Shown here piece by piece: positions 1 to 58,930 of a stretch of DNA of 64,000 nucleotides. Numbering within the stretch: the stretch's first letter is position 1; each line of letters opens with the position of its first letter. The notes under the pieces were generated by a model. It was not told where the DNA came from and made no database searches. It saw nothing but the letters and a program-made list of their open reading frames with translations. This DNA comes from an uncultured Candidatus Saccharibacteria bacterium (GTDB lineage: Bacteria > Patescibacteriota > Saccharimonadia > Saccharimonadales > UBA10212). The position numbers were made by a program, and so were the translations under genes. The stretch is taken from the NCBI GenBank assembly GCA_964460855.1, contig CAYWQH010000006.1, positions 3,232 through 67,231 on the forward strand, given 5' to 3'.

Positions 1-332
1 AGCCGGTAGCCGGCCAGTTGGCCGTTGACGTTTATGAAACCCGCGAAAAGCTTATAGTTAAAGCCCGCACCGCCGGTGTTAACAAGAACGATTTAGACGT
101 GAGTATTTCTGACAATACGTTAAGCATCCGCGGCACATTGAGCGCCGGTAACGAAGACGACGTTGAGAATTACTTTGTGCAGGAGTGTTACTGGGGCGAA
201 TTTAGCCGCAGCATTGTACTGCCGATACCTGTTAAAGAAGAAGAAATCGAAGCCATGCTAAAAGATGGCGTACTGACGATTAGCTTTACTAAATTGAAGC
301 AGGACACAGTAAAGAAGATCCAGGTTTTATAA
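1..332 (+). CDS. Hsp20/alpha-crystallin small heat-shock protein; 5' end lies outside the window
   Basis: The frame is open from position 3 with no upstream stop. The translation (AVDVYETREKLIVKARTAGVNKNDLDVSISDNTLSIRG...FSRSIVLP...DGVLTISFTK) matches the alpha-crystallin domain pattern. Stop TAA is at 330-332, followed by a hairpin terminator. Confidence 0.85.
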   Translation, partial: PVAGQLAVDVYETREKLIVKARTAGVNKNDLDVSISDNTLSIRGTLSAGNEDDVENYFVQECYWGEFSRSIVLPIPVKEEEIEAMLKDGVLTISFTKLKQDTVKKIQVL

Positions 333-714: not shown

Positions 715-1125
715 TTAGCCCGCTACTGCCCGGCCGAGAATAAAGCGCACAATTACTTGGGCCAGGGCCACGATGATCAACCCGATAATCGCGTAAAGAA
801 TGGTGTTTTTAGCACTGGTTACATTGGCGCTGTCGCCGCCGCTGGTAATGTAGCGCAGGCCGCCGATGATTATCATAATCACCGCGACTACTCCGACAAC
901 AAACGAAAACAGGTTAATTACCGTAGCGATCAGTTTATTAACTTTATCAGAGGCAGCCCCGGGCGTAATACCGCCGCTGGCACAGTCGCTGCTGACGTCT
1001 AAATTAGCCCCGGCACATAAGCTGTCTTGAATATCGGCTTGGGCGGCTACCGGCGCGGCGGCGGCCATCAAAAACAGCATGCTCACCGCAAAAGCTTGTA
1101 AGGAGAATAGTAGTCGCTTAAACAT
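715..1125 (-). CDS. TrbC/VirB2-like T4SS pilin paralog 1 (136 aa)
   Basis: Signal peptide (MFKRLLFSLQAFAVSMLFLMAAAAPVAAQA), a short 2-Cys variable segment, then the conserved two-helix pilin core ...LIATVINLFSFVVGVVAVIMIIIGGLRYITSGGDSANVTSAKNTILYAIIGLIIVALAQ... Confidence 0.65.
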   Translation of the reverse strand: MFKRLLFSLQAFAVSMLFLMAAAAPVAAQADIQDSLCAGANLDVSSDCASGGITPGAASDKVNKLIATVINLFSFVVGVVAVIMIIIGGLRYITSGGDSANVTSAKNTILYAIIGLIIVALAQVIVRFILGRAVAG

Positions 1126-1168
1126 AGATTAATTTTACTACAACGAAGCGCTTGGCAGAAGGAGTTAT

Positions 1169-1624
1169 TTAAGAAGCGCTATTGGTGGCACGGCTGAGTA
1201 CGAAGTGGACGATGAACTGGGCGAAAGCGACGATTACCAAACCGATAATGGCATAGAGGATGGTATTTTTAGCGGCCGATACACTGGCGCTATCGCCGCC
1301 GCTAGTGATATAGCGGAAGCCGCCGATGATGATCATTATTACGGCTACTACGCCGACAACGAACGAAAATACGTTGATGACGGTAGCAATCAGGTCGTTA
1401 ACGCTATTAGTGGATTGGGCATCACAATTATTAGTGCTTACGGTGGTGCCCGGATCCGGGGCTTTTAAAGTAGAGCCCTGGCACAAACTAGCTTGGATAC
1501 AGGCATCGCCGGAGCCGGCGGTACAGGTAGTGGTAGCGGCCATAGCAGCCGGCGCAATTGCCAGCGGTATAGCCACGGCAAAAAAGGCCGCCGTGCTAAT
1601 TAATAACTTTTTGATTTTGTACAT
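1169..1624 (-). CDS. TrbC/VirB2-like T4SS pilin paralog 2 (151 aa)
   Basis: Signal peptide, a 4-Cys Ser/Thr-rich variable segment, and the same core (GGFRYITSGGDSASVSAAKNTILYAIIGLVIVAF). SD AAGGA lies 8 nt upstream of the ATG (reverse complement of 1630-1640). Confidence 0.65.
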   Translation of the reverse strand: MYKIKKLLISTAAFFAVAIPLAIAPAAMAATTTCTAGSGDACIQASLCQGSTLKAPDPGTTVSTNNCDAQSTNSVNDLIATVINVFSFVVGVVAVIMIIIGGFRYITSGGDSASVSAAKNTILYAIIGLVIVAFAQFIVHFVLSRATNSAS

Positions 1625-1688
1625 AAGAATTTTCCTTATAATTTTATTTTACTTATCTTATACCATAACTGTTAACCAAGCAAAAGAG

Positions 1689-2135
1689 CTAGGTGGTGCG
1701 GGACAGGACAAAATGGACAATTATCTGGGCCATTGATACCACCACCAAGCCGATAATGGCATATAAAATGGTGTTTTTGGCCGCCGAAATGGCGCCGCTG
1801 TCGCCGCCGCTGGTAACATAGCGGAAGCCGCCGTAAATAATCATTATTACCGCCACTATACCAACAATCCAGGAAAATATATTTATGACGTTAGCTATGG
1901 TGTGGTTAACGCAAGTTGTAGAGTTGGTGGATGTAACGCCATTAATAGTGCAAGAAGCTTTGCCGGTAGACTGGGTGCCGCAAGTTACGGCATCGGCGCT
2001 GGTGGCAGGGTTGTTGCAATCAATTGTTGCCGCCGCATGTGCCGATATAGGCGCTAACGCCAGAATAAATAAAGAGCTGAGGCCGGTAAGGGCCAGCGCC
2101 AGGTTTCTTAAATGCTTATTCATATTAATGCTCAT
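1689..2135 (-). CDS. TrbC/VirB2-like T4SS pilin paralog 3 (148 aa)
   Basis: Signal peptide, a 4-Cys variable segment, and the core GGFRYVTSGGDSGAISAAKNTILYAIIGLVVVSMAQ. The start ATG overlaps the stop of the upstream gene (ATGA at 2132-2135); an alternative start is Met5 at 2123. Confidence 0.65.
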   Translation of the reverse strand: MSINMNKHLRNLALALTGLSSLFILALAPISAHAAATIDCNNPATSADAVTCGTQSTGKASCTINGVTSTNSTTCVNHTIANVINIFSWIVGIVAVIMIIYGGFRYVTSGGDSGAISAAKNTILYAIIGLVVVSMAQIIVHFVLSRTT

Positions 2136-2536
2136 AATAACTGATCCGCGATAAATGTCGCAATAACTACTGCCAGCAGGCCGACAACCAGCCCGACAAT
2201 GGCATATAAGATTGTGTTTTTAGCGGTAGTGACTTTGCCGGCATCGCCCCTGGCTGTTATGTACATCAAGCCACCGCTAATTAGTGCTATCGTGGCGGCG
2301 ATGCCTACTACGTAGCCAATAATTAATGTGGCGGTGTGCAAAATGCCTTTAGGCCCGGTAATCGGGTCGGTTACCGGTTTTTTTGCTTCTTGGCAGGTGG
2401 TACTGTTTGCCGATGGGCCGCTGCACACCGTTCTAGTCGGGAAAAAGTTCCAGGCGGCCGCCGGCCGGGCAGCAAACAGCTGGCTCGCAACAACCAGGGC
2501 GGTAAATACAAAAATAAGCAGGTAAAGTTTTTTCAT
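2132..2536 (-). CDS. TrbC/VirB2-like T4SS pilin paralog 4 (134 aa)
   Basis: Signal peptide, a 2-Cys segment, and the core SGGLMYITARGDAGKVTTAKNTILYAIVGLVVGLLAVV. ATGA overlap with the upstream gene at 2533-2536. Confidence 0.6.
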   Translation of the reverse strand: MKKLYLLIFVFTALVVASQLFAARPAAAWNFFPTRTVCSGPSANSTTCQEAKKPVTDPITGPKGILHTATLIIGYVVGIAATIALISGGLMYITARGDAGKVTTAKNTILYAIVGLVVGLLAVVIATFIADQLL

Positions 2537-2847
2537 TTGGCCAACCCCAGCACGAAGTTAACGATAATGAAAGCCGAGCCGGCAATAACCATACCTATGG
2601 CCGCATAAACAATGGTGTTGCGGGCTTTAACGATTTTAGCTGGGTCACCCTGCGAAGTAACATATTGCACGGCCGCCAGCATAATTACCACCACGCTGAT
2701 TGCGCCGATGACACCTAAAACATAATTAACGATGGTCAATAAAGTCGACGAATCAGCTTTGGCATGGGGAATAATAATGTTATTGGAGCCCTGCAGCGGG
2801 GCGCCAAAGCTAACCGCCGAAATTAATAAACCGTGGAGCTTGTTCAT
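2533..2847 (-). CDS. TrbC/VirB2-like T4SS pilin paralog 5 (104 aa, minimal form without Cys segment)
   Basis: Signal peptide followed directly by the core (AVQYVTSQGDPAKIVKARNTIVYAAIGMVIAGSAF). ATGA overlap at 2844-2847. Confidence 0.6.
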   Translation of the reverse strand: MNKLHGLLISAVSFGAPLQGSNNIIIPHAKADSSTLLTIVNYVLGVIGAISVVVIMLAAVQYVTSQGDPAKIVKARNTIVYAAIGMVIAGSAFIIVNFVLGLAK

Positions 2848-3224
2848 CCGCCTATTTTAGCCCCTATAAACCTGACCACAGCCGTGGCAATTATTACGAT
2901 GCCCATGCCAACCACGGCATTAATAATACCGGTGCGGGCCGAAGCGGCCTTTTCGGGGTTGCCTTGCGAAGTAACGTAGCGCAGTCCGGAAATAATTATG
3001 TAAATGGCCGCTAAAAAGCCGGCCAGCATCAGCAGGATCTCGATTATGGCGAAGCCGATAGCCCATAGGTCGTTTAAGCCGTTAACGGTGGGGCTGCATT
3101 TGTGGGTAACCGGGTCGGTTTCGCTTGGCAAATATTTATACCAGGTGGGCAAACCAAAGAATGAACCGCCGGGCGCGCACGACGCGGCGAAGTCGAAAGG
3201 TATTTTTATCAAAGCCAGGATCAT
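2844..3224 (-). CDS. TrbC/VirB2-like T4SS pilin paralog 6 (about 126 aa; the ORF is open up to 3266)
   Basis: Core ...IYIIISGLRYVTSQGNPEKAASARTGIINAVVGMGIVIIATAVV with a 2-Cys N-terminal segment. Met at 3224 forms an ATGA overlap with the stop of the 3221-3988 gene, matching the coupling pattern of the other junctions. The longer 3266 start would overlap the upstream gene by 46 nt. Confidence 0.5.
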   Translation of the reverse strand: MILALIKIPFDFAASCAPGGSFFGLPTWYKYLPSETDPVTHKCSPTVNGLNDLWAIGFAIIEILLMLAGFLAAIYIIISGLRYVTSQGNPEKAASARTGIINAVVGMGIVIIATAVVRFIGAKIGG

Positions 3225-3988
3225 TGCAAAATGCCTCCCGGTATCAGCCATTGCAGGAACGCCCACATAAACATGAAGGCCAGTAAGCCGATAACTGTAT
3301 TCATGATGCGTTTTTTGGCATTGGCCGTAGCCGTTGGGTTATCGCCGGCGGTGCTGTATTGGATGCCAGCTATTATTAATGATATTACCGCGACAATGCC
3401 AACGCCAGCCGCCAAGAAGTTTATGAAGGTTTTAAGCAACTTAATGATCGGGCTGGTACTGACGCAGGCGTTGACGTTATTGGGGTCGTTGCATTGGGGG
3501 CGGGAATTCAGGCCGTTGGGTGTCGAGGTAGGGCTGGTTTGGGAGTGGGCAGCCTGCCAGGCGGCCAGCTGGTCGTTAAGGGTCTTGCAAGAATTTTGCC
3601 GGAAAGTCAGTTGGGGCGTGTCTTGGACTTCCAAAAAGCAGCCGCTTTTAGGCGTGCCGGTAATAGTTTTATTGTTGCCGTCTAAAAAGACCGTGGGCTT
3701 GGTGGCGCCGGGATGCGTACTGGTGCCGGTAAAAGTACTGCAATCCGAGGGGTCGGAAAAACCGGTGGGCTGCTTAAAGTCCGTGGATACATAACAAAGA
3801 GATGGTTGTACGCCAGCATCTGCCGGCGGTATGGCACCCGCGGCCAATACCGGCGAGCGCATTAAAACCGGCACCGCCAATAAGGCCAGCAGCAATACCG
3901 TAAACAAGATTTTGGAAGTGTTTAGTTTAAGCGTCACGAGTATTTTATCCTGTAAACAACTATATAACACTTTTGCTTTGTAACCCAA
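3221..3988 (-). CDS. TrbC/VirB2-like T4SS pilin paralog 7 with a ~150-aa, 6-Cys ectodomain (255 aa)
   Basis: Hydrophobic signal region, a long Ser/Thr/Pro-rich segment with six cysteines, then the core IVAVISLIIAGIQYSTAGDNPTATANAKKRIMNTVIGLLAFMFMWAF. It is the first gene of the minus-strand operon. Confidence 0.55.
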   Translation of the reverse strand: MGYKAKVLYSCLQDKILVTLKLNTSKILFTVLLLALLAVPVLMRSPVLAAGAIPPADAGVQPSLCYVSTDFKQPTGFSDPSDCSTFTGTSTHPGATKPTVFLDGNNKTITGTPKSGCFLEVQDTPQLTFRQNSCKTLNDQLAAWQAAHSQTSPTSTPNGLNSRPQCNDPNNVNACVSTSPIIKLLKTFINFLAAGVGIVAVISLIIAGIQYSTAGDNPTATANAKKRIMNTVIGLLAFMFMWAFLQWLIPGGILQ

Positions 3989-3993
3989 CCAAA

Positions 3994-4026
3994 TAAGAGG
4001 GGTGGGGCCAATTGTTGTACCCCTTA
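3994..4026. promoter_or_regulatory. Divergent promoter region with an imperfect inverted repeat (TAAGAGGGGT ... ACCCCTTA)
   Basis: Only 60 bp separate the divergent pilin operon (start 3988) and the VirB6-like gene (start 4049). The repeat AAGAGGGGTG (3994-4004) / ACCCCTT (4019-4025) sits here, followed by a TATAGT -10-like element at 4035-4040. Confidence 0.3.
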
Positions 4027-4048
4027 TGCTATGGTATAGTCAAACAAG

Positions 4049-6802
4049 ATGGTAAACAGAGCAAAAATTGGGACCTGGTTAGTCTTTGTTTGTTTTTTCC
4101 TGACAATAGCCGCCAACTTTATACAGCCGGCCACCGGCCATGCCGCCGCGATCGGCGCAGTCAGTTTAGCCGAAGCCCAAAAAGGCCCTTATAACTTTAT
4201 TAACCGCTCCACCATAGAAGCCCATTTGGGCAGCCAAGTTATTGATTTTGTAGATACCAACCCGTTTGACACTAATCTTAATTATGCCGCCCAAGACTAT
4301 ACTTGTGACGGCAGCATACAATTACACACCAGCGCCGCTGACAAGACCTTTCAGCTTGGCGGCGTACCGGGTAATTTTTCAGCAACATTGTCGATGACGG
4401 CCTGGGACGCCCAAAATAACTGTAATAGCAAAGTTAACTGGGACATTACCCATCTAATCAACCACCAGCCAACAACCGGTACGGGCGAAGCCTTTTATTT
4501 CCAGTGGGTAGATAGCGGCACCATTAAAGTTTCGGTGGGCATTAACACTAAAAACGAAAACGACGGCGAAACTTACCGGGTTATCAACCCTAAGCAGCCG
4601 AACCGCTTTTTCAGGGATTCCGAAAACGGCCAGGATTGCCAGGATTATGTAGATGTGGACGTAGCTAATAATTCAGGCAACGAGCTAAACTGGCAGTGTA
4701 ACGGCAAGAAGCAGGTCCAGGTAGGCGCTAACTTCGTTAATGTTAACTCTATAACGGACGGCGGCAAAAATGGCAAAATCGCAACGATTGCCAGCCGCCA
4801 GTTCTTAATTGGCGGCGTCCAAAATAAGAATAAGCCGGCCACAGCGGCCAACACTGGCGGGGCCGCCGACCAAACCTGCGAGTCCGAAAACCATACCGGC
4901 CTGGAATACTTGTTTTGCCCGGTGGTTAACGCCCTGGACTCGACGATTAACGACTTAAACAGCCAGATAGAATCGCTGCTGACATTTAAAACTTCGGGCA
5001 AGGGCAGCGACTTTGGTGCCGGCAACGAAATGAAAACGGTGTGGAGCGCTTTCCGCTTAATTGCCACATTGCTGATAGTTCTGGCTATGATGATAGCCGT
5101 TATATCGCAAACTGCCGGCTGGGACTTTATAGACGCGTACACGATCAGGCGGCTGCTGCCCAAGCTGGTAATTGCCGCCATATTCATCCAAATTTCATTC
5201 CCGGTAACGGTGTGGCTGATTGATTTATTTAATGCCATTGGCGCCGGCGTGGCCGAGCTGATATTCGCGCCGTTTGGCGGCTCCGGCCATGTTACGCTGT
5301 CAAATTTGCTGGGCCATAATGTCGGCGGCGCCCAGTCGTTGGGCTTATTCGCCCTAGTGTCGGCCGGCCTTTTGTTTGGCGGCCTGGTTATGAATATTTT
5401 TGGCGTAGCCGCGCTGGCGCTTACTGCGCTAGTGGCGCTATTCGTCGGCTTTTTGGTATTGGTGCTTCGGAAAATATTGCTGGTGGTGTGCGTAATTATG
5501 GCGCCGATCGCTATCGTAGCTTGGATTATCCCGTCGCCGGGCATCCAAAAATGGTGGAAGCTCTGGCACGAAACCTTCTTTTCGCTGTTAATAATGTTCC
5601 CGATTATTATGGCCGCCATAGCCGTGGGCCGGGTGTTCGCCTCGATTGCCGTGACCACACAGGGCAACGGCACCATCGTGAATTTCTTTATTATCGTGCT
5701 GGGCTTTTTCGGACCGTTCTTTTTGCTGCCGTCAATTTTTAAACTGGGCGGGCGGGTGCTGCAAACGTTTACCGGCTTTACCAACGATAAAAGCAAAGGC
5801 CTGTTCGACCGTTCGCGCAACTGGCTGGGCGACCAGCAAAAATCCAAGAAAACCCGCAAAGAGCGCGAAGCCCAAAGGCGCATGGCCACCGGTGATTACC
5901 GGCGGCGCGACCGGCTAATGGGCCGGCCGGCGACCGACCGGTTCACGACCGGTACGGTTCCGTTTGCTTCTAAATCAAACCGTATTAAAGCCCAAAAAAT
6001 TGGTGAACAGTATGAAGCTTTCCTGGCTGAAGAAATGAAAAGCGAAAAAATTAAAGCCGATAACGTTATATCTAACCTAGACCAAGACGGCCAAAAAGAG
6101 TACCGGCGCTTAATGCTTACCGGTGGACGGGGCAGCATTAAGGGCCTGGACGGAACGACCATAGATGTTGACGGATCGCACGCCACCGAAGCCCAGCGCC
6201 GCGTTGTGCTCGATAACGCTTTAGGCTTTAAGGATTACCAGAATGTTGACGAATATTTAAGAACTGCCGATGCTTCGCGCAACGAAACTATGCGCCAAGA
6301 AGCTACCCGTTTCCGGCAAGCAAATGTAGGCGAGCTAAACAAATCATTGCAGCACTCCCTTGTGCCCGCCAAGGTCAATGAAACAACTGGCCAACTTGAC
6401 GTATCTGCCGGGTTTGCATTTGCAGCCGGCAAGAACCCAGAGGCTATAGTAGGCATGAGCGGTTACGAAGTACAGAGTATTTTGGCGAACACCGAAGGCG
6501 CCGACCTTGAAAAGTTCTTAGCCAACTACGCGGCAGCCGCGTCCGGCAAAGACCGGCTGGCGCTTGACCAGGGAGGCGCCGAGGCCGTTAAAGCTTTTTT
6601 AAATAACGACCCTAATCAAACGATAGGCAAAATTAATGGCTCATGGGTAGATCCAAAAACTGGTATAACCGAAACTGGCAAGCCAAAAATTATTGGATCT
6701 ATTGATATGTCTAAAGCTGCCCGTATTAATCCGGATACACGGAATATTATTAATAAAGAAATAAACGATAACGGGACTATTGTACCCAGGCAGAACCCCT
6801 AA
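4049..6802 (+). CDS. VirB6/TrbL-like polytopic T4SS membrane protein with a large N-terminal ectodomain and a charged C-terminal domain (917 aa)
   Basis: Signal peptide, a ~300-aa extracytoplasmic domain, then 7 or more hydrophobic helices (TVWSAFRLIATLLIVLAMMIAVISQ ... FFIIVLGFFGPFFLLPSIF). A lysine/arginine/glutamate-rich C-terminal 300 aa follows. Position and topology match VirB6/TrbL of monoderm T4SSs. Confidence 0.5.
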   Translation: MVNRAKIGTWLVFVCFFLTIAANFIQPATGHAAAIGAVSLAEAQKGPYNFINRSTIEAHLGSQVIDFVDTNPFDTNLNYAAQDYTCDGSIQLHTSAADKTFQLGGVPGNFSATLSMTAWDAQNNCNSKVNWDITHLINHQPTTGTGEAFYFQWVDSGTIKVSVGINTKNENDGETYRVINPKQPNRFFRDSENGQDCQDYVDVDVANNSGNELNWQCNGKKQVQVGANFVNVNSITDGGKNGKIATIASRQFLIGGVQNKNKPATAANTGGAADQTCESENHTGLEYLFCPVVNALDSTINDLNSQIESLLTFKTSGKGSDFGAGNEMKTVWSAFRLIATLLIVLAMMIAVISQTAGWDFIDAYTIRRLLPKLVIAAIFIQISFPVTVWLIDLFNAIGAGVAELIFAPFGGSGHVTLSNLLGHNVGGAQSLGLFALVSAGLLFGGLVMNIFGVAALALTALVALFVGFLVLVLRKILLVVCVIMAPIAIVAWIIPSPGIQKWWKLWHETFFSLLIMFPIIMAAIAVGRVFASIAVTTQGNGTIVNFFIIVLGFFGPFFLLPSIFKLGGRVLQTFTGFTNDKSKGLFDRSRNWLGDQQKSKKTRKEREAQRRMATGDYRRRDRLMGRPATDRFTTGTVPFASKSNRIKAQKIGEQYEAFLAEEMKSEKIKADNVISNLDQDGQKEYRRLMLTGGRGSIKGLDGTTIDVDGSHATEAQRRVVLDNALGFKDYQNVDEYLRTADASRNETMRQEATRFRQANVGELNKSLQHSLVPAKVNETTGQLDVSAGFAFAAGKNPEAIVGMSGYEVQSILANTEGADLEKFLANYAAAASGKDRLALDQGGAEAVKAFLNNDPNQTIGKINGSWVDPKTGITETGKPKIIGSIDMSKAARINPDTRNIINKEINDNGTIVPRQNP

Positions 6803-6804: not shown

Positions 6805-7956
6805 ATGGCAGTATATAAAGTAATCCAGGATATCGAAGCCGAAGACAAAATCTTAGGCCCGTTTGGCCTTAAGCAATTTGGCTACGCCTTTGTGGCAGTG
6901 TTTTGCGCATTTATAAATTTCCAGTTTATCGTCCATTCGGACATCGGCCCGGCCCGATTCGTTGGAGTTTTAATGTTTATTTGGCCGATGATATTATTCG
7001 GAGTTTTGGCCGCGCCGCTGGGCGGGGCCCAGCCAACCGAGGTATGGCTGTTAGCGCGCCTCCGCTTTTTTTTGAAGCCGCAAAAGCGGATATGGGACCA
7101 AAGCGGCGCCAAGCAACTGGTTACCATAACCGTGCCTAAAAAAGTAGAGAAGCACCTGACCAAAGATTTTACCCAGTCCGAAGTGCATAGCCGCTTGCAG
7201 GCCTTGGCTACAACGCTGGACAGCCGCGGCTGGGCGGTTAAAAACGTTTCGGTTAACTTGTTTGCCGAGCCCGGTTACTTAACCGACACCAATACCAACG
7301 AAGACCGGTTGGTTGGTACCGAAAGCCTGCCGCAAGAAGTGCCGGCCATAGACGTACGCGCCGAAGACGACATTTTAGATACCCGGTTTAACCCGACCGC
7401 CCACCACGTAGACGTGCTGGTCAAAGAAAAAACCGAAGAAGTAAAAAAACAAACCATCCAGAATTTCAACCAGGCGATTAATTCCGCTGCTTCCCAGGAT
7501 AATGACAAGCATGGGGACGGCAGGCACCATAAAGAACGCCGCCAGGACAAGCTGCCGGCCGATAATTCCGGCGAGCCGCTGGTGACCTTTGACCGAAGCG
7601 TAGTCAGCCCCGGCGACGACCCCCATAGCCGTGGTGCGGCCAAGTTAACGCCGGCCGAAGAAGCCAAATTCACCAAATTAATGCACGAACTCAGCGCCCA
7701 CGACAAGCACCGCGAAAGCTTTAGCCGTTTGCCTAAAATCATGCCGCTCAACAAGCAAAGAGAGCTTATAGACCAGATGGACCGGATGACAGACGAACAG
7801 CGTACTGCTAAACTTAAAGAACTAGCCAATAATGACGATTACTCGGTGGCGACGATTGCCAAACAAGCTAAACGCGAATCCGCCAAAAGCGGAGAAAAAC
7901 CTCGCCAACCCGAGAAACATAATGATGATGACGAGGTGGTAGTTTCACTGCGCTAA
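6805..7956 (+). CDS. PrgI/VirB3-like membrane protein with a long disordered charged C-terminal extension (383 aa)
   Basis: The N-terminal ~110 aa (MAVYKVIQDIEAEDKILGPFGLKQFGYAFVAVFCAFINF..., two TM helices) resembles the PrgI family found upstream of VirB4 in Gram-positive T4SSs. The remainder is low-complexity, rich in K/E/D/H. Stop/start lies 2 nt from the VirB6-like gene. Confidence 0.4.
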   Translation: MAVYKVIQDIEAEDKILGPFGLKQFGYAFVAVFCAFINFQFIVHSDIGPARFVGVLMFIWPMILFGVLAAPLGGAQPTEVWLLARLRFFLKPQKRIWDQSGAKQLVTITVPKKVEKHLTKDFTQSEVHSRLQALATTLDSRGWAVKNVSVNLFAEPGYLTDTNTNEDRLVGTESLPQEVPAIDVRAEDDILDTRFNPTAHHVDVLVKEKTEEVKKQTIQNFNQAINSAASQDNDKHGDGRHHKERRQDKLPADNSGEPLVTFDRSVVSPGDDPHSRGAAKLTPAEEAKFTKLMHELSAHDKHRESFSRLPKIMPLNKQRELIDQMDRMTDEQRTAKLKELANNDDYSVATIAKQAKRESAKSGEKPRQPEKHNDDDEVVVSLR

Positions 7957-7981: not shown

Positions 7982-8839
7982 ATGGATCCAAATATGCAGC
8001 CAAATTCACCAGGGTACGGGGCTCCGCCGGGAGCGCCGGGTGCCGGCATGCCGCCGGGCAACATCCAGCCCGCAGTAGTGCCAACTGCCGCCGGGCAGTC
8101 CAAATCCAACCCCAACAGCACCCAAAACGCGCTGCATATCAGCGAAATCCGCGACGGCATAGTAATAATGAACGACGGAACCTTCCGGGCCGTAGTAATG
8201 TGCAAGTCGATTAACTACGACCTGATGAGCCCCCAGGAGCGCGAAGCGGTGGAATACAGCTACCAGGGCTTTTTGAACTCGCTGTATTTTCCTATACAAA
8301 TAAGCGTCCAAAGTTCCAAAGTAGATTTACGGCCGTACATCGACAAGCTCGATAAAATCCGGGCCGAGCACGACAACATGCTTTTGGCCCTTTTAATGGA
8401 CGATTACATCGACTTTTTAGCGTCGCTGGCCCAGCAAACCAATATTATGGACAAGCGGTTTTATGTGGTTATCAGCTACCCGGACCCCGGCGAGGATTTG
8501 CGCCACGCCGTAAAACAAGGCACCAGCTTTTTTACGGGTTTAACCGAACTGTTCAGCCCCAGCAAAGAACCGCATTTGGTAATAAATGAGGCCGTGCTGG
8601 AAAACGCCAAAACCGAGCTGCGCAACCGGGTGCAGGCGGTATTGCAGGGCTTGCTGCAGTGCGGCGTGCAAGGTTTGCCGCTGGACACCCAGGAATTAAT
8701 CGAACTTTATTACGACGTTTACAATCCCGACACCGCCACCCGCCAGCAGTTAAAGAACTTTAACGATTTAAATACTCCGATTGTTACCAAAGGTGAGGGC
8801 GAAGCGCCCCAGCCAAACCTGGATAAGGAGATGCAGTAA
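7982..8839 (+). CDS. T4SS-associated protein (285 aa) with a Pro/Gly-rich N-terminus; possibly a split N-terminal VirB4-type domain
   Basis: The segment ISEIRDGIVIMNDGTFRAVVMCKSINYDLMSPQEREAVEYSYQGFLNSL...FYVVISYPDPGEDL resembles the N-terminal region of Firmicutes VirB4 homologs. Stop TAA overlaps the ATG of the VirB4 ATPase ORF (TAATG at 8837-8841). Confidence 0.3.
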   Translation: MDPNMQPNSPGYGAPPGAPGAGMPPGNIQPAVVPTAAGQSKSNPNSTQNALHISEIRDGIVIMNDGTFRAVVMCKSINYDLMSPQEREAVEYSYQGFLNSLYFPIQISVQSSKVDLRPYIDKLDKIRAEHDNMLLALLMDDYIDFLASLAQQTNIMDKRFYVVISYPDPGEDLRHAVKQGTSFFTGLTELFSPSKEPHLVINEAVLENAKTELRNRVQAVLQGLLQCGVQGLPLDTQELIELYYDVYNPDTATRQQLKNFNDLNTPIVTKGEGEAPQPNLDKEMQ

Positions 8840-10752
8840 TGGCTTTCGGTAGGAAAAAGCAGCAAGTCGACCCGATACTGCTGGCCCAGCAGCAGCAGAT
8901 GCGCGAGCAGGCCGAAGTTTCGCAGGCTTTCCAAAAAGGCATTACCGCGCTGCGCGATTTTATCGCCCCCAGCTCGCTGGTATTTAACAGCACGTCCTTC
9001 CAGCTGGGCACGCGTTATGCCCGGACTTACTTCGTATATATGTACCCCCGGCAAATTTATACCGGCTGGCTGAGCGGCATGGTTAACCTCGACGAAATCA
9101 TGGATTTATCGATAATCGTTTATCCGGTTAACAGCCAGGTCGTGTTGGAAAACCTGCGCAAAAAAGTCGGGCAGTTAGAAGCCGGCATCCAGATAGACGC
9201 CGAAAAAGGCCGGGTGCGCGACCCCGGCAAACAGGCGGCCATTTTAGACGCCGAAGAAATGCGCGACAAGCTGCAAGTGGGCGAAGAGCGCTTTTTCCGT
9301 TTTGGCATGTACTTTACGCTGTACGGGCATTCGATGGACGAGTTGGAATTTGTGTGCCATAAGGTTGAGTCGATGCTCGGCCAGCAATTGATATATTCCA
9401 AGCCGGCCACCGCCCAGCAGGAACAGGCTTTCAACAGCACGGCGCCGCAGTTTTTAGACCAGCTGCAAATTTACCGCAACATGAACACCGGGGCAATCAG
9501 CACCAGTTTTCCGTTTACCTCGGCTGATCTCAGCGACGACCACGGCATATTATATGGAATCAACATGCACAACTCCGGGCTGGTTATTTTTGACCGCTTC
9601 AGCTTAGAGAACGGCAACGCGGTAGTATTTGCCAAATCCGGCGCCGGCAAAAGTTTTACGGTTAAGCTCGAAGCCCTGCGCAGCATGATGCTGGGCACCG
9701 AAATATTTATTATCGACCCCGAAAACGAATACCAGCGGATGTGCGATGCCGTCGGCGGCGCTTATGTGCGCCTCAGCCTTAACAGCCCGACCCGCATAAA
9801 CCCGTTTGACCTGCCCAAAGTTATCGACGCCGAAGAAGCCGACAACGCGCTGCGCTCGAACTTAATTACGCTGCACGGGCTGCTGCGGCTGATGATGGGC
9901 GGGGCGGTGGCCCAAATCAGCCAAACTGGCGGCTCCCAAACGGTGCCGGCCCTAACGCCGGCTGAAGAAGCCGACCTCGATGCCGCCTTAATTGAAACTT
10001 ATGCTAAAGCCGGCATCACCAACGACCCGCTGACCCATGCCTCGCAGCCGCCGACTGTTACTGATTTATATGAAACGCTGCTGCACATGGGCGGCACCGG
10101 GCCGCAGCTGGCCCAGCGCCTGCGCAAATACACCAGCGGGACTTTCGCCGGTATTTTCAGCCAGCAAAGCAACATCAATATTAATAACCCGATGGTGGTA
10201 TTTAATATCCGCGACCTCGAAGACGAGCTTCGGCCGGTAGCCATGTATATCGTGCTGAACTTTATTTGGAATAAAACCAAAGCCGACCAAAAGCGCCGGA
10301 TGCTGGTGGTTGACGAAGCCTGGCAGTTAATGAAATACGAAGACAGCGCCAACTTTTTGTTCAGCCTGGCTAAACGGGCCCGCAAATACAACTTGGGCAT
10401 TACCACCATTACCCAGGACGTCGAAGACTTTATGGGCAGCCGCATGGGCCGGGCCATCGTAGCCAATGCCAGCATGCAAATTTTACTTAAGCAATCGACC
10501 AGCGCCGTAGACGTGCTGGCCGACGTATTTAAATTAACCAGCGAAGAGCGCAAACGCTTAAGCCAGTTCCCGGTCGGGCAGGGCCTGTTCTTTGCCGGCC
10601 AAAACCATGTCCATATCCAAATTGCCGCCAGCCCTACCGAAGCCGGCCTGATAACAACTAACCCCCAGCAGGTCCAGCAAATCCAAGCCGGCGAAATTGA
10701 CCAGCCGCAAGGCACAATCGACCTGAGCAACCAGCTGACGCCTGGGGTATAA
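8839..10752 (+). CDS. virB4: VirB4/TrsE-family T4SS ATPase (637 aa)
   Basis: Walker A AKSGAGKSF, Walker B RMLVVDEAWQLM, motif GITTITQDVEDF, plus the typical VirB4 N-terminal region (FVYMYPRQIYTGWL). Confidence 0.9.
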   Translation: MAFGRKKQQVDPILLAQQQQMREQAEVSQAFQKGITALRDFIAPSSLVFNSTSFQLGTRYARTYFVYMYPRQIYTGWLSGMVNLDEIMDLSIIVYPVNSQVVLENLRKKVGQLEAGIQIDAEKGRVRDPGKQAAILDAEEMRDKLQVGEERFFRFGMYFTLYGHSMDELEFVCHKVESMLGQQLIYSKPATAQQEQAFNSTAPQFLDQLQIYRNMNTGAISTSFPFTSADLSDDHGILYGINMHNSGLVIFDRFSLENGNAVVFAKSGAGKSFTVKLEALRSMMLGTEIFIIDPENEYQRMCDAVGGAYVRLSLNSPTRINPFDLPKVIDAEEADNALRSNLITLHGLLRLMMGGAVAQISQTGGSQTVPALTPAEEADLDAALIETYAKAGITNDPLTHASQPPTVTDLYETLLHMGGTGPQLAQRLRKYTSGTFAGIFSQQSNININNPMVVFNIRDLEDELRPVAMYIVLNFIWNKTKADQKRRMLVVDEAWQLMKYEDSANFLFSLAKRARKYNLGITTITQDVEDFMGSRMGRAIVANASMQILLKQSTSAVDVLADVFKLTSEERKRLSQFPVGQGLFFAGQNHVHIQIAASPTEAGLITTNPQQVQQIQAGEIDQPQGTIDLSNQLTPGV

Positions 10753-10777: not shown

Positions 10778-13700
10778 GTGGCGGTGCCAGACTCGCAGCC
10801 GAGCATCGATCCGGAAGAGCCTGAAAACCAGGGCCACCCGGAAGAGGATTTTAGCGAAGCGCTAGATAAAAAATACGCTTCGCCGCTGGACCGTGACCCC
10901 GAAACCAGTGATGATGACGATGATAGCGGCGGCGGAGACCAAAGCGAAGGCGGCGATGCCGGTTCCGGCGGAAAAGACGCGGCCGAAAAAGGCGAAGACA
11001 AAAAAGAGGCCGCCGACAACCAGGTAGGCCGTGGCTATACCAAAAGCAAAAAACCAGACGACAAGAAAAAGGGCGGTTTTGGCTCGATGTCGGGAAATCG
11101 CAAGTGGCTGCTGGGCGCCGGCATTGGCGGCAGCATAGTGGCGATAATAATTTCCATTATTTTTGGCTACCTCAGCATTTTTAAACTGGACGGCATAGTG
11201 AGCAATGTCGACCAAAAAGCTTTTATACGCTATAACTCGGCGTCCGACAAGCGCTCCGACAAATGGTTGCGCAGCTACTTTATACTGCGGCTGACCCAGC
11301 TAGAGGGCAACGGCGTCGACCCCGACAGCGAATACTTCAGGGCCCATAAAGTTGATACCAACAACCCGGTCCGCGACTGGTACCACACCATGCGCACCAG
11401 CCGGTTCGAAGCCGATTTGGCTAAGCAGGGGGTAGTAATCGCGACCCGTCCCGGCCAGGACGGCCTGCAATTCCACGTGCTGCAAGTAGACGGCAAGGAC
11501 TTTGCCGGTCTGGACGCCAAAGACGTGCGCAAAGGCAAAATAGAGGAACTGCTGAGATCCGGCGATGCCGGCACCTTAAACCGGGTTGATATTGATTTTA
11601 ATAAACCGGGCGCCAGCAAAGAAGCCCGGGCGGTTATTAAAAAAATCGTTAACGAAAACACCCAAGGCGCTAATGTGCTTAAAAAGCGGCAGCTGCGCAA
11701 AGCCATCGCCAACATGACCGGCGTCCGCGACTGGACCTTTTTCGAAAAAACCAAGGACAAAGCCCGTAACAAAAAAATAGATATCCGCGATAAGATTGTC
11801 AGCAAAGCCATCCCCAAAAATATCAGGGCCGGCAAATTCGTGCGCTGCCTGTTCGGCATCGACTCCAGCTGCCACTACAGCGCCGACCCCAGCGACCCAG
11901 CCAATGGAGCGCCCAATGAAGAACTGACCGGCACGCCGGAACCAGGCCATGACGGCGTTAAAGACCCTAAAACCGGCAATATTATCCCGTTTGGCGATAC
12001 GGCCACTATATTGAAGCAAATTATTAGCAAAGCAAACGTGGTGCTGGCCGCCGCTAATGTTGTTGGGACGCTAGACGTTCTAGCCCACCTGCACGACGCC
12101 GTCCATAACCAGCAGCTCAGCAAAATGGTTTCAGTAGCCCGCGGCACCCAGGCCATGGGCCTGTACCAGGTTTTCGAAACCAGCCGCGACCAGGTAAAAT
12201 CCGGCGAGCTGACCGGTGACGAAATGAACAGCATGCTGCAAGTAGTGGGCTCAGCCGGCAGCAGCGAAGGCTGGAGCAAAGTAATGGACGGCAACGGGGC
12301 GGGCAATACCGCCCAAAGCGACAGCGGCAAAGTATACGCTGCCTCAAATATTGACCCTACGGACGGCTCGAACCGAGATAAATATTGTTCGGCCGAGCAC
12401 CAGGCCTGGATTACCAAGAAAGAAAACCTCGTAGCCGCCAATAAGGAATACCATTATTTATGCCCGTCCAAGCAAATTGGCGGGGCATCGAACGCCAGCG
12501 ACATCGAAAGCGCTTACAATAGCAGTATCGGCCCGGTCGTCGACCCGTTGGTGGGCGCCTATAACGACGCCCGCGGCCTGCCTTTAATAGGCGGGCTTCT
12601 AACTATAGTCAATAGCGTATCCAATTGGCTGACCAGCCAGATATCGGGAGTGATTGGAAACATCCTTAGTACTTTAGGATTGCAAGATAATATAGACGAG
12701 TTAATGAAGTGGGTAATCGGGGAAGTCAGCGGTTTTTTGGGGGCCGGACCGATATTGCAAGAAGATACTACGCACGCCACCCCGGCAGGAGTGTATATGA
12801 ACTGGCTCATCCAGGGCGGGGCCTACTCGGCCGAAGCCGGCTCGCGTTTTATGGGCGCTAACGCTACAACCAGCCAAAGCAAAGCCCAGGCCGAATCCAA
12901 TGTAAATAGCTACAGCGCCAGCCAGTTCGCCAGCCAAAGCACTTTCCAAAAATACTTTGCCATAACTAATACAAACTCTTTGCTAGGTAAAGTCGCGTTT
13001 TCGGCCGTTGAAAATAACCAGTCTAAAGGGGCCTTGTTCGTAAGCGTATTCCATTCCGTGCCGCGCCTGTTTGCCGCTGCCTTCAGCCTGCCGTTCCATA
13101 GCGCCCGGGCGGCCGCCAATAACCCTTATGCCGCTTCTAACTTTGCCGGCATCCAAACCTACGACTGGCCGCAAGAATGCTACGACCTCGACCCGCTGGA
13201 CGACAGCCCGCAAAGCGGCACAAACATTACGCAAGTTCTTCACAATGTGAACCCGAACGAACTAACTTGGGACTTGGTTAATAATTCCGAGAACTTTTAT
13301 AAGTTCGTATACGATAAAATCGGCAACGACCCCAACGCCGACGACACCGCCAAGAAAATATATAACTGCCACTTGCTGGACACCGGCGTGCGCGGCAGCC
13401 TCGGCAATATATACGGCTACACTAATGACAACGGCCTGGAAGACAGCCAGGCGTCGTCCGACCAGACTAACCCGACGGACAGCGGCGGATCCGGCGTGTC
13501 GCCGGACGGGTTTGTATTCCCGCAAGTCACCACCAAAGCTTCCCTTAAAGCACACGGCTGGAACCCGGATTGTGTTAATCCAATCTCTTCAATGGGCCCA
13601 GGCGACCGCAGTGACTTATGCCACCACGACTACCTTGCTGCCGACATTTTTAACGCTACCGGTACGAAAGTCGTAGCCGTGCGGCCGGGCCGCATCGTTA

Positions 13701-14041
13701 GCGCCCACGACTCCGGTTCGATCGGTATGACAGTAAGGTTATATAGCGACAAGGCGCTGGGCGGCGACGGTTTGTGGTATTACTTCGCTCATATGCTCAA
13801 ATCGAGCGAAGGCGGAAAAGGGCCTAACGGCGGGCTGTTTGTAAATGTTGGCGACGTGGTTAAAGCCGGCGACCAGCTTGGCCAGGTCGGCACCGACGCC
13901 GACGCCGAAGGTACGCCATCGCATACCCACTTTGACGTAAGCCCGGTAGAGAATGGCTTCCACCGCGGATTTGACGGGACGGCCGGGCCGCTGCTTGACC
14001 CCCAACCAGCATTAAAAGCGGCATATCAGGCGCTGCCATAA
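10778..14041 (+). CDS. Membrane-anchored T4SS cell-wall hydrolase with a C-terminal M23 peptidase domain (PrgK/TcpG-like, 1087 aa)
   Basis: GTG start with SD GAGAGGG (10764-10770). Acidic disordered N-terminus (DDDDDSGGGDQSEGGD), one TM helix (LLGAGIGGSIVAIIISIIFGYL), and a large ectodomain. C-terminal M23 motifs HHDYLAADI (HxxxD) and HTHFDV (HxH). Confidence 0.8.
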   Translation: MAVPDSQPSIDPEEPENQGHPEEDFSEALDKKYASPLDRDPETSDDDDDSGGGDQSEGGDAGSGGKDAAEKGEDKKEAADNQVGRGYTKSKKPDDKKKGGFGSMSGNRKWLLGAGIGGSIVAIIISIIFGYLSIFKLDGIVSNVDQKAFIRYNSASDKRSDKWLRSYFILRLTQLEGNGVDPDSEYFRAHKVDTNNPVRDWYHTMRTSRFEADLAKQGVVIATRPGQDGLQFHVLQVDGKDFAGLDAKDVRKGKIEELLRSGDAGTLNRVDIDFNKPGASKEARAVIKKIVNENTQGANVLKKRQLRKAIANMTGVRDWTFFEKTKDKARNKKIDIRDKIVSKAIPKNIRAGKFVRCLFGIDSSCHYSADPSDPANGAPNEELTGTPEPGHDGVKDPKTGNIIPFGDTATILKQIISKANVVLAAANVVGTLDVLAHLHDAVHNQQLSKMVSVARGTQAMGLYQVFETSRDQVKSGELTGDEMNSMLQVVGSAGSSEGWSKVMDGNGAGNTAQSDSGKVYAASNIDPTDGSNRDKYCSAEHQAWITKKENLVAANKEYHYLCPSKQIGGASNASDIESAYNSSIGPVVDPLVGAYNDARGLPLIGGLLTIVNSVSNWLTSQISGVIGNILSTLGLQDNIDELMKWVIGEVSGFLGAGPILQEDTTHATPAGVYMNWLIQGGAYSAEAGSRFMGANATTSQSKAQAESNVNSYSASQFASQSTFQKYFAITNTNSLLGKVAFSAVENNQSKGALFVSVFHSVPRLFAAAFSLPFHSARAAANNPYAASNFAGIQTYDWPQECYDLDPLDDSPQSGTNITQVLHNVNPNELTWDLVNNSENFYKFVYDKIGNDPNADDTAKKIYNCHLLDTGVRGSLGNIYGYTNDNGLEDSQASSDQTNPTDSGGSGVSPDGFVFPQVTTKASLKAHGWNPDCVNPISSMGPGDRSDLCHHDYLAADIFNATGTKVVAVRPGRIVSAHDSGSIGMTVRLYSDKALGGDGLWYYFAHMLKSSEGGKGPNGGLFVNVGDVVKAGDQLGQVGTDADAEGTPSHTHFDVSPVENGFHRGFDGTAGPLLDPQPALKAAYQALP

Positions 14042-14042
14042 T

Positions 14043-15932
14043 ATGAAAAACTTATCTTCTTATATTAATAAGCGTTACCTGGTGGCCGGCATGTCGCTAA
14101 TATATTTATTTGCCTTCAGCTCCCCGGTGTTCGCAGCAACCGATCCTTATAAAGCGCTGCAGTGGCCGTTTTACGATCCGGGCTGCGGCAGTACAGCTGA
14201 TACAACTCCGGTTAGCGACGCGCATACTGATTTAAATTACCCTACCACGCTTCAGGACACGGCCATAATAAAAGCCATCATCGATTATATCCGCGGCGCG
14301 TTCCCTAAAAGCACTTTTTTATCTAATCCGGCGGGCGCAGACGTGACAATTACGTCGTTAGTGGCCAGCGCAAAAAAGAATAACGTCAGCCCCTTTATTG
14401 TCGTGGCCATTGCCCAGAAGGAAAGCCAGTTAGGCGACCCGGTCGACTTTAACGTCAGCCACGGCAATAACTCATTCGGCCGCACTGCCGCCCCTGGCCA
14501 GCCGAGCTTCCAGGGCTCGCACACCTGGTATAAATGGGAATCTATAAAAGCCAGCGTGGATTATACCGACCCCTCCAACCGCGGGCAAAAAGCCGGCGAC
14601 GAAGTATCGTTTTTGCGCTCAGTCTACGGCGACACGATTGATTCCGGCGACCTGACGCAAATGATCAGCCGCTACGCCCCGCAATCCGACGGCAACGATA
14701 CGGCCGGCTATATAACCCAAGTTCAGGCAATGTTGGATAAATTAACTAAAGCTTCCGGCGGCGCCGGCACTGATATTTCTTCTACCGGCAACAGTACCGA
14801 TAGTACCGGCAGCTGCGCCTGTCCGGCCAGCTCCAGCACGGCCGCAAACACCGACGTCGCAGCCGGAATCGGCAAAGGCATGACCGCCAATGCCCAAAAG
14901 AAATTCAAAGATATACTAGCCGGTGCCGGTGGCAAATTTAAAGTCGCGCCCGAATTTATAGCGTCCTTTTACTATGCCGAAAATTCCCGCACCGACGACT
15001 CTACCAATAACGCCGACTCGGCCCAGCCGCCGCCGGTTACCGGTAATGGAAAATGGCGCGAGCCGGCGCCACCGTACGGCACTGGCGCGGCCTATGACAG
15101 GAACGGCTTTACGGCTTCCGGCCCGTTCCAGTTTATTGATTCGACCTGGGCCAGCTTTAAAGTTGACGGCAACGGCGACGGCAAAGCCGACGTAAACGAC
15201 TTGGCCGACGCCACCTACGGCGCGGCTAAATATTTGGCGTCTAATGGCGGCGTAGTGGGGGCTTCCGATAAGAAATTACGCGACGCCGCATTCCTATACA
15301 ACCACAGCTCTACTTATGTGGATTCGGTAATGAATACTTATAAATATTTAAAGAATGGCAGTACAACTACAGCTTCGGCATCCGGTACAACTACTGACTG
15401 TAGCAGCGCGTCTTCAACTGATACTACGGGTTATAAAAATCCGCTGCGGGATGTTAAAAACCTGGTGCCGGAGCGCGATGACCAAGGTGTAGACTACGCC
15501 GGCAGCGGGCCAATTTACGCCATCGGGACCGGCATGATTAACTATATAAAATATTTCGCAGATTCGGGTTGGCCGCCAAAACCAGCGGGCACCTTCATCA
15601 ACTACACGCTCAAAGGCGGTAAAGCCGATGGAAAATCCGTATATGTGGCCGAAAACTGCGCGCCGCCCAAGGTAAAGTTAGTAGTAGGCGATACGGTGCA
15701 TAACGACACCATTCTGTGCAACCTAATAGACGCCAGCCCGCATATGGAAATTGGCTGGGCGAAGCCCGGCCAAGGCGAAGCCTATGCCCATAACATTTAT
15801 ACTGAAGGCGATTTAACCGCTTACGGCTTAAACTTTTCGCAGTTCCTGGAAAGTTTAGGCGCGCCCCCCGGCACTACCTTCAACGGGCCGGTAGTCGGAA
15901 CTTTAGAATCGGGTTGGCCACAATGGAAGTAG
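14043..15932 (+). CDS. Secreted lytic transglycosylase-domain cell-wall hydrolase (VirB1-like, 629 aa)
   Basis: Signal peptide. GPFQFIDSTWASF...ADATYGAAKYL matches the SLT-type GxMQF..TW motif seen in T4SS and phage lytic transglycosylases. A second lysozyme-like segment (IAQKESQLG) and a C-terminal domain are also present. Confidence 0.6.
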   Translation: MKNLSSYINKRYLVAGMSLIYLFAFSSPVFAATDPYKALQWPFYDPGCGSTADTTPVSDAHTDLNYPTTLQDTAIIKAIIDYIRGAFPKSTFLSNPAGADVTITSLVASAKKNNVSPFIVVAIAQKESQLGDPVDFNVSHGNNSFGRTAAPGQPSFQGSHTWYKWESIKASVDYTDPSNRGQKAGDEVSFLRSVYGDTIDSGDLTQMISRYAPQSDGNDTAGYITQVQAMLDKLTKASGGAGTDISSTGNSTDSTGSCACPASSSTAANTDVAAGIGKGMTANAQKKFKDILAGAGGKFKVAPEFIASFYYAENSRTDDSTNNADSAQPPPVTGNGKWREPAPPYGTGAAYDRNGFTASGPFQFIDSTWASFKVDGNGDGKADVNDLADATYGAAKYLASNGGVVGASDKKLRDAAFLYNHSSTYVDSVMNTYKYLKNGSTTTASASGTTTDCSSASSTDTTGYKNPLRDVKNLVPERDDQGVDYAGSGPIYAIGTGMINYIKYFADSGWPPKPAGTFINYTLKGGKADGKSVYVAENCAPPKVKLVVGDTVHNDTILCNLIDASPHMEIGWAKPGQGEAYAHNIYTEGDLTAYGLNFSQFLESLGAPPGTTFNGPVVGTLESGWPQWK

Positions 15933-18355: not shown

Positions 18356-18362
18356 TGGCTTA

Positions 18363-21083: not shown

Positions 21084-21089
21084 GCCCAA

Positions 21090-55556: not shown

Positions 55557-55582
55557 GTTGTTAATGGTAAAATTAATCAGAT

Positions 55583-56653: not shown

Positions 56654-56737
56654 TTGCACTTTTAAAATGCTTAAGGCATACTTTACCCCGTAACAACATA
56701 AGCATTTTTAATATCAAATTAGGAGGAAATGCTTTCT

Positions 56738-58914: not shown

Positions 58915-58930
58915 GGTATACTTATGCTTA

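Follow-up and report, generated by a model that had tools for sequence, protein, structure and literature searches.

A seven-gene array of VirB2-like pilins in an origin-proximal type IV secretion locus of Saccharimonadales and its possible role in a heteromeric tube

We analyzed a stretch of 64,000 nucleotides (nt) from a Saccharimonadales (Patescibacteria) genome, referred to here as the window, in which seven co-oriented open reading frames (ORFs) lie in tandem on the minus strand at positions 715-3937. The seven products are VirB2/TrbC-type pilins with even numbers of cysteines between the N-terminal export segment and the first membrane helix. The array lies beside the genes of a chromosomal type IV secretion system (T4SS) in an order kept among relatives, and its members fall into orthologous classes that occupy fixed positions and evolve at very different rates. 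We read the array as the VirB2-like pilin set of an origin-proximal chromosomal Saccharimonadales T4SS, orthologous to SEML1_0014-0019 of Southlakia epibionticum, and suggest that its products would build one heteromeric tube; taken as a whole, we hold this reading to be somewhat better than an even bet. A heteromeric pilus is favored over antigenic variation, one of the possibilities offered in the original prediction for this DNA. Saccharibacteria cannot live as epibionts without the T4SS, of which the pilin array is, for a monoderm, the most unusual part.

Seven small pilins of the VirB2/TrbC type

We number the genes so that gene 1 is the last and gene 7 the first of the array. The original prediction had assigned all seven to the VirB2/TrbC-type pilins and had called for a Pfam profile search, which confirmed the assignment: all seven proteins score above the gathering cut-off of the PF18895 family T4SS_pilin (26.6 bits, whole-protein score), with 55.1, 51.8, 52.2, 37.0, 40.2, 30.7, and 39.0 bits for genes 1 to 7, respectively (E-values from 3e-7 to 8e-15). 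These matches cannot be due to chance. The TrbC/VirB2 family PF04956, with a cut-off of 27.9 bits, is exceeded by gene 2 (29.6 bits) and missed by gene 1 by only 0.2 bits (27.7 bits); gene 7 (21.5 bits) and gene 3 (19.2 bits) score lower, and the Pfam search gave no PF04956 match for genes 4-6. All seven proteins also align over nearly the full length of the NCBIfam model NF045849 (E-values from 2e-8 to 6e-6), yet with 25.8-34.0 bits they stay under its 40-bit cut-off and are not members of that family. Genes 5 and 6 match DUF6112 (PF19607) weakly, with 16-19.5 bits against a cut-off of 25. The homologues bear the NCBI names “pilin” or “TrbC/VirB2 family protein,” and 73,820 representative proteins match a profile of the seven window proteins at E ≤ 0.001. 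A profile search of the PDB sequences with 100 orthologues returned only weak, irrelevant matches (FtsZ, cytochrome bd), and the Rfam scan of the window found nothing. A tblastn search with gene 1 against 72,556 plasmids gave no match, and therefore no link was found to plasmids of cultured bacteria.

Could the genes instead encode secreted effectors, or unrelated small membrane proteins of the holin-like or bacteriocin-immunity kind, that stand beside a T4SS by chance? A transcriptome study did label the orthologues in TM7x “putative effector genes” (bioRxiv 10.1101/2022.03.25.485537). However, every one of the seven proteins exceeds the PF18895 cut-off, the two C-terminal hydrophobic helices would hold the proteins in the membrane, and the synteny with VirB4, VirB6-like, and PrgI genes is kept in more than 100 loci. 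We give this explanation almost no weight.

The proteins show the VirB2-type layout of a signal peptide followed by two hydrophobic helices with a short loop between them, and AlphaFold predicts the helices as hairpins with predicted local distance difference test (pLDDT) values of 82-92. For gene 1, the model is a helical hairpin of residues 55-94 and 99-135 (pLDDT 82-92). For gene 7, the core is modeled with a pLDDT of 85-92 and the ectodomain with a pLDDT below 50. Foldseek matches include ATP synthase subunit c, the fold being too simple for fold searches to discriminate. Two features that had been ascribed to all seven genes hold for a part of them. The strict core motif RY(I/V)TSGGD...AKNTILYA is present in genes 1-3 and degenerate in genes 4-7, and only six alignment columns are invariant over all seven proteins. 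As judged by direct reading of the sequences, canonical Sec signal peptides occur in genes 1, 2, 3, 4, and 7; the one in gene 5 is weak, and the N-terminus of gene 6 (MILALIKIPFDFAAS-C) is short and atypical.

Read in the direction of transcription, the array opens with gene 7 (3221-3937). Its most likely start is the GTG at 3937, with an AGGA upstream, rather than the TTG at 3988. This start yields the 238-residue database protein P0001 and drops one N-terminal cysteine, leaving a protein composed of a signal peptide, an ectodomain of about 130 residues with six cysteines, the two-helix core, and a C-terminal WLIPGG tail. Gene 6 (2844-3224) starts at the ATG at 3224, which is preceded by a GGGAGG Shine-Dalgarno sequence, and encodes the pattern C...SFFGLPTWYKYL...C ahead of the two-helix core. 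Gene 5 (2533-2847) encodes only 104 residues with a minimal ectodomain, followed by gene 4 (2132-2536) and gene 3 (1689-2135). The ATGA stop/start overlaps that join these five genes, at 3221-3224, 2844-2847, 2533-2536, and 2132-2135, are located exactly where they had been predicted. Gene 2 (1169-1624) and gene 1 (715-1125) are each preceded by an intergenic gap. The database call for gene 1 (P0121, 118 residues) begins 18 codons downstream and lacks a signal peptide; its start is probably wrong because the ATG at 1125 gives a canonical signal peptide as found in the orthologues.

The numbers of cysteines following the signal peptide agree with the original prediction, being 2, 4, 4, 2, 0, 2, and 6 for genes 1 to 7. 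Each of them is located after the signal peptide and ahead of the first membrane helix, which makes them extracytoplasmic and not cytoplasmic. The even counts, which had been noticed within this one array, turned out to be near-universal across the family and fit disulfide-stabilized surface segments: among 301 pilins of related arrays, 249 have even and 21 have odd counts, most of the latter being boundary artefacts of the ORF and signal-peptide heuristics. Among database-called proteins, even counts outnumber odd ones by 112 to 3 for the relatives of gene 7 and by 117 to 1 for those of gene 1, or 229 to 4 combined. The membrane core is free of cysteines in 282 of the 301 pilins. The two cysteines of gene 4 stand 11 residues apart. 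The ectodomains had further been described as hypervariable, which fits the fast-evolving gene 7, whose ectodomain has no detectable homologue, homologues aligning to the core alone. It does not fit gene 1, whose ectodomain is conserved together with both cysteines in 100 orthologues, C37 being invariant and C48 at least 90% conserved.

Ordered pilin classes and their evolution

We compared the array with arrays taken from related loci, comprising 49 genomes with at least five pilins each. Six pilins per array are the rule (38 genomes), with seven in 5, five in 4, and nine in 2 genomes. Clustering of the cores resulted in four classes with almost invariant positions. Class E stands first in 48 of 48 arrays and has an ectodomain of 32-203 residues with 2-10 cysteines and, in 34 of 48, a C-terminal PGG tail; it is represented by gene 7 in the window. 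Class W, to which gene 6 belongs, stands second in 47 of 48 and is marked by (F/L)(F/L)G(L/F)PxWYKYL between two cysteines. The short and mostly cysteine-free class S stands third in 46 of 48 and includes gene 5. Class M forms the 3' end with about 3.1 copies per array; it is of the “SGGD” type, has exactly two cysteines in 140 of 153 members, and shows C-x10-11-C as its modal cysteine loop. Window genes 1-4 belong to class M, genes 1-3 being of the SGGD type and gene 4 of a DPITGPKG subtype.

In class W, gene 6 and its orthologues share a very short hydrophobic N-terminus ending in a lipobox-like A-(A/G/S)-(S/G)-C, ahead of the highly conserved (F/L)(F/L)G(L/F)PxWYKYL stretch and the second cysteine. 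The PxWYxY motif is widely kept among relatives. We considered whether the “AAS-C” of gene 6 could mark a lipoprotein and judged this unlikely, given the shortness of the N-terminal segment and the presence of exactly two cysteines in most members of the class, in keeping with a disulfide pair.

The class assignments are mirrored by the nearest neighbors of the individual genes. Window genes 4-7 are each closest to the genes at the same position elsewhere, above any paralogue in the window, and gene 4 is matched best by genes of relatives that stand second and third when their arrays are counted from the 3' end. Genes 1-3 all resemble the last-position class of relatives: the core of gene 1 is 72-79% identical to the last-position pilins, and the nearest sequence to gene 3 is window gene 2, with 75% core amino-acid identity. 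We infer that the window carries one extra copy of the last-position pilin, a seventh gene that arose by tandem duplication within this lineage. Evolutionary rates differ strongly along the locus. In genomes whose VirB4 is 85% identical, the pilin cores share 38-64% and the ectodomains 11-26% of their amino acids; the last gene evolves slowest and the ectodomain of the first gene fastest.

The last gene is also set apart by its upstream region. The gap before it usually measures about 50-70 nt in relatives, and an extended -10-like element, TGnTA[TA]AA, is present in 25 of the 34 gaps of at least 40 nt, followed about 18 nt downstream by an RAAGG Shine-Dalgarno sequence in 23 of these 25. Within arrays, the density of TGnTA[TA]AA is 0.05 per 100 nt. 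In the window, the gap before gene 2 (1625-1688, minus strand) contains the extended -10-like TGGTATAA (1665-1658) and a TAAGGAAAA Shine-Dalgarno sequence. A generic scan placed a promoter-like site at 1675-1646, although the site counts of this promoter/terminator scan were not above those of shuffled sequence; the conserved element became visible only through the comparison of relatives. In the gap before gene 1 (1126-1168, minus strand), a degenerate copy of the element, TTGTAGTAAAAT, stops 6 nt short of the ATG, and no Shine-Dalgarno sequence is present. We can only infer that TTGTAGTAAAAT acts as a promoter, and the transcript of gene 1 may be leaderless. With the element before gene 2 and its degenerate copy before gene 1, the pair therefore resembles the outcome of a tandem duplication of the last pilin gene, the one that bears the promoter-like element.

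These comparisons bear on a possibility raised in part by the original prediction, namely that the paralogues are interchangeable major pilins serving antigenic or host-range variation, as has been proposed for the VirB2 arrays of Bartonella and Anaplasma, and diversified by gene conversion between their cores. The ectodomains do differ strongly, both between paralogues and between orthologues, the number of class M copies varies in arrays of 5 to 9 genes, with an extra copy in the window, and it has been suggested that such versatility may aid adaptation to different host strains (PMC12102498). However, the order of the orthologous classes is fixed across about 49 species, the four ATGA overlaps enforce co-expression, and the six orthologues are individually essential in S. 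epibionticum; fixed class order, coupling, and essentiality thus disfavor variation of the antigenic or phase type. The cores are also less alike than had been assumed. Instead of the claimed DNA identity of about 80%, the cores of genes 1-3 reach 75%, 74%, and 67% in pairwise comparison, and all remaining pairs 41-55%. Exact words shared between cores extend to 12-21 nt at most, and 22-28 of 71 core codons carry synonymous differences. With such low identity, short exact words, and many synonymous differences, the cores are old duplicates without a sign of recent conversion and form a poor substrate for it. The rest of the 64 kb contains no silent pilin cassettes, and no further pilin repeats lie outside genes 1-3. 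Altogether, we regard the variation of interchangeable pilins as improbable. Strain-level relatives did not come to light: the metagenome collection gave no match to the VirB6-like query, VirB4 queries of genomes and metagenomes returned nothing above 86% identity, and the exact pilin proteins of the window occur on one contig only.

At the top of the family profile search stand single polypeptides in which 4-17 pilin hairpins follow one another in tandem (P0241, L161:1777-3435; P0245; P0246; P0247). They have one N-terminal signal peptide followed by repeated units of linker, first transmembrane helix, loop, and second transmembrane helix. P0241, with six hairpin domains, can be translated from its contig, where its gene is located within an array of otherwise single pilins.

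The secretion locus and a possible heteromeric tube

A divergent intergenic region (3938-4048) separates the pilin operon from an operon of T4SS genes on the plus strand. The first of these (4049-6802) encodes a VirB6-like polytopic membrane protein of 917 residues without a Pfam match, which corresponds in position and size to SEML1_0011, annotated from its predicted structure as T4SS/TrbL-VirB6-like (PMC10633639). The protein has an N-terminal extracellular domain of about 330 residues with six cysteines (86, 125, 197, 217, 277, 290), again an even number. It is followed by a PrgI-family (VirB3-like) protein (6805-7956; PF12666, 29.4 bits against a cut-off of 27), by a TrsD/TraD-like N-terminal VirB4 partner (7982-8839) that matches SEML1_0009 in position and the NCBIfam model TrsD with an E-value of 1e-6, below the cut-off, and by the VirB4-type ATPase (8839-10752; PF19044 TraG P-loop, 104 bits). 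The ATPase is 80-86% identical to those of 160 loci in metagenome-assembled genomes of Saccharimonadales/Saccharibacteria. Two cell-wall hydrolases with a VirB1-like role (10778-15932, plus strand), a 1087-residue M23 peptidase (PF01551) and a 629-residue SLT transglycosylase (PF13406/PF01464), correspond in size and order to SEML1_0007 and SEML1_0006. The genes recF, dnaN, and dnaA (17297-21089, minus strand), identified by Pfam and arranged as SEML1_0001-0003, lie next to them; the T4SS locus therefore adjoins the replication origin, as has also been noted in PMC12102498. On the other side, an Hsp20 gene (18-332, plus strand; PF00011), convergent with the array, marks the syntenic boundary of the locus. 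SEML1_0020, after the pilins of S. epibionticum, likewise encodes Hsp20 (PMC10633639).

The pilin genes thus have VirB4, PrgI, TrsD-like, and VirB6-like genes within 5 kb on the opposite strand, as expected of VirB2-type pilins. With seven tandem genes at a distance of 4.9 kb from virB4, the array also agrees with the definition of patescibacterial VirB2 arrays as 2-11 genes in tandem or one gene apart (PMC12102498), and the gene order of the window is that of SEML1_0001-0020. No type IV coupling protein or relaxase was found in the window, as judged by the Pfam families among the large ORFs scanned.

In the mechanism that we propose, genes 7 to 3 would share one mRNA and be translationally coupled through their ATGA overlaps, and genes 2 and 1 would receive extra expression from their own promoter-like elements. 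Sec would export the pre-pilins, and the cleaved forms would reside in the membrane as helical hairpins whose two ends, the N-terminal segment and the C-terminus, project outward while the (R/K)Y(I/V)TSxGD loop faces inward, the paired cysteines of the outside segment forming disulfide loops. The machine of VirB4, PrgI (VirB3), and the VirB6-like protein would extract the pilins and polymerize them into one heteromeric tube. The conserved and better-expressed SGGD pilins (genes 1-4) would constitute the shaft, with gene 1 as the candidate major pilin because it belongs to the most conserved class. The single-copy genes 5 (short), 6 (with FFGLPTWYKYL), and 7 (large and cysteine-rich) would provide minor pilins for initiation, adaptation, or the tip. 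The variable N-terminal segments would decorate the outer surface of the tube, the ectodomain of gene 7 being the best candidate for host contact. The seventh gene would stem from the lineage-specific tandem duplication of the last-position pilin.

The topology follows that of TraA and VirB2, in which the N-terminus lies outside after cleavage, the loop in the cytoplasm, and the C-terminus outside. In conjugative pili of solved structure, the lumen is lined by the loop, and the termini point to the outside; N-terminal extensions with disulfide loops would therefore coat the filament surface. We favor one heteromeric structure because of the fixed order, the class orthology, the translational coupling, and the essentiality in S. 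epibionticum, and also because the last gene is more conserved and has an extra promoter-like element and because fused polypeptides of 4-17 hairpins exist. That fused poly-pilins exist, one of them inside a pilin array, suggests that the paralogues assemble side by side.

Cryo-electron tomography of the Saccharibacterium Mycosynbacter amalyticus revealed a tube or “lance” of 8.6-9 nm in width and 60-70 nm in length, with a barbed tip, that bridges to the host; the authors assign it to no gene set (PMC11880426). By analogy, the lance might be built of pilins such as those described here. The width of conjugative pili matches that of the lance. A more far-reaching proposal would treat the array not as variants but as the components of a single heteromeric T4SS tube: four ancient pilin classes in fixed gene order, a surface coated by disulfide-looped N-terminal segments, the hypervariable, cysteine-rich class E ectodomain as a host-recognizing tip, possibly that of the M. 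amalyticus lance, and the poly-pilins of other lineages as covalently linked forms of the shaft. We put this forward tentatively and think it rather doubtful in its full extent. If true, such a tube would be the first pilus of the T4SS superfamily, and of a monoderm, to be built from major and minor pilins.

Several points weigh against a heteromeric pilus. A filament of these proteins has never been seen or purified in any Patescibacterium, and Gram-positive-type T4SSs are normally without pili (PMC12102498). The assignment of shaft and minor roles draws solely on conservation, copy number, and promoter-like motifs. Genes 5 and 6 lack a clear cleavable signal peptide, and no disulfide-forming enzyme was found in the window, in which the large ORFs scanned include no DSBA- or VKOR-type Pfam family. 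The essentiality deduced from transposon sequencing (Tn-seq) could partly be a polar effect, the genes being small parts of a coupled operon with 11-15 insertion sites each.

The role of VirB2 in substrate transfer is separable from pilus formation, and the array might encode no extended pilus at all. The hairpins would then form a membrane- or wall-spanning part of the T4SS channel, such as a hetero-oligomeric ring, a short stalk, or an assembly resembling a c-ring. This would agree with the general lack of pili among monoderm T4SSs of the mating-pair-formation FATA (MPF-FATA) type (PMC12102498) and with a fixed, stoichiometric set of classes under translational coupling, as fits a defined complex. 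The fused chains of 4-17 hairpins recall the duplicated c-subunits of rotary ATPases, SEML1_0018 has a structure-based domain match to “F1F0 ATP synthase subunit C,” and subunit c is among the Foldseek matches mentioned above. On the other hand, the sequence profiles group the proteins with the pilus-forming TrbC/VirB2, fast-evolving outer segments with disulfide loops are more typical of exposed surfaces, and a tube of 8.6-9 nm does exist in a related organism, although it is not assigned to these proteins. We consider such a channel or ring the less likely, though still plausible, option and retain the heteromeric pilus as the preferred reading.

Outside the T4SS locus, the window contains a large cell-surface polysaccharide cluster (23666-48863) with rmlABCD for dTDP-rhamnose, an ABC-2/Wzt exporter, many glycosyltransferases, a Wzy_C ligase-like gene, a sugar transferase, and a CHAP-domain protein. 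Within the ORF at 32557-34329 (minus strand), which encodes a 590-residue protein without a Pfam match, positions 32660-33198 comprise a tandem repeat of 171 nt (57 residues) in at least 3-4 copies with 65-79% identity. Seven ORFs of 193-393 residues at 53956-61100 (plus strand) have no Pfam matches, several of them with signal-peptide-like N-termini, and include a tandem pair of paralogues (56729-57772 and 57835-58860) with 66% identity; a 936-residue CBM_4_9 protein follows this run. These products may be surface or adhesin proteins.

Comparison with known systems

The original prediction considered the array undescribed, which proved not to be the case: VirB2-like arrays of Saccharibacteria were published in 2018, 2023, and 2025. 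A 2018 preprint described such arrays in Saccharibacteria as encoding small VirB2-like proteins with signal peptides, 4-6 of them in TM7x (bioRxiv 10.1101/258137). In S. epibionticum ML1, the six PF18895 pilins SEML1_0014-0019 were each found essential by Tn-seq (Wang et al., 2023; PMC10633639). Quinonero-Coronel et al. (2025; PMC12102498) described 441 arrays of 2-11 VirB2 genes in 383 assemblies of Patescibacteria, mainly in Saccharimonadia and Microgenomatia, with a mean identity of 25% within arrays, and drew an analogy to Bartonella and Anaplasma; their idea of adaptation to host strains is the one that the original prediction had raised as host-range variation. Pilin arrays were also reviewed in 2025 (PMC12857230), and reviews call the role of the T4SS in Saccharibacteria unknown (PMC11665869). 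Term searches in PMC12102498 and a limited literature search turned up nothing on paired cysteines, signal peptides, a fixed order of classes, or poly-pilin fusions. The ordered classes, the paired cysteines, the internal promoter-like element, the duplicated last gene, and the poly-pilin fusions elsewhere are new here, as increments only. The window adds no new kind of system, and the comparison sharpens the published picture. It also names targets for cultivable strains, namely the pilins to label as candidates for the shaft and for host contact and the cysteines to mutate.

The closest known system is the T4SS locus of S. epibionticum ML1, which shares with the window dnaA-dnaN-recF, the two hydrolases, VirB4, the TrsD-like, PrgI, and VirB6-like proteins, the divergent PF18895 pilins, and Hsp20, down to a third pilin of 104 residues in both (SEML1_0016, 312 bp). 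The two loci differ in the number of pilins, seven in the window against six owing to the extra last-position copy, and in the VirB6-like genes, one in the window, without an equivalent of SEML1_0012, against two. The patescibacterial arrays of PMC12102498 resemble the window array in their tandem VirB2-like genes near virB4 and in the low identity between array members.

More distant systems share parts of this design. VirB2, TrbC, and TraA of diderms (PF04956) have the same signal peptide, two hydrophobic helices, and short basic loop and the same linkage to VirB4, VirB3, and VirB6. Unlike these, the window pilins belong to a monoderm host, carry N-terminal extensions of roughly 10-130 residues with disulfide-type cysteine pairs, and comprise several specialized paralogues instead of one major pilin plus VirB5. 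The pilin-like conjugal transfer protein Mbov_0395 of Mycoplasma integrative and conjugative elements (NF045849) and DUF6112 are related to the window proteins, which score below the cut-offs of both. The VirB2 arrays of Bartonella and Anaplasma phagocytophilum likewise consist of tandem, diverged VirB2 genes in a T4SS locus. Whereas those arrays are read as variants of one major pilin, the window paralogues represent four ancient classes in fixed order. Type IV pili offer an analogy, not a homology: an abundant conserved pilin is encoded together with low-copy specialized pilins, and disulfide loops are exposed, the disulfides of the D-region being well established in type IV pilins. The fold and the machinery are, however, unrelated, with PilB/PilC and a prepilin peptidase in type IV pili as opposed to Sec and VirB4 in the system described here.

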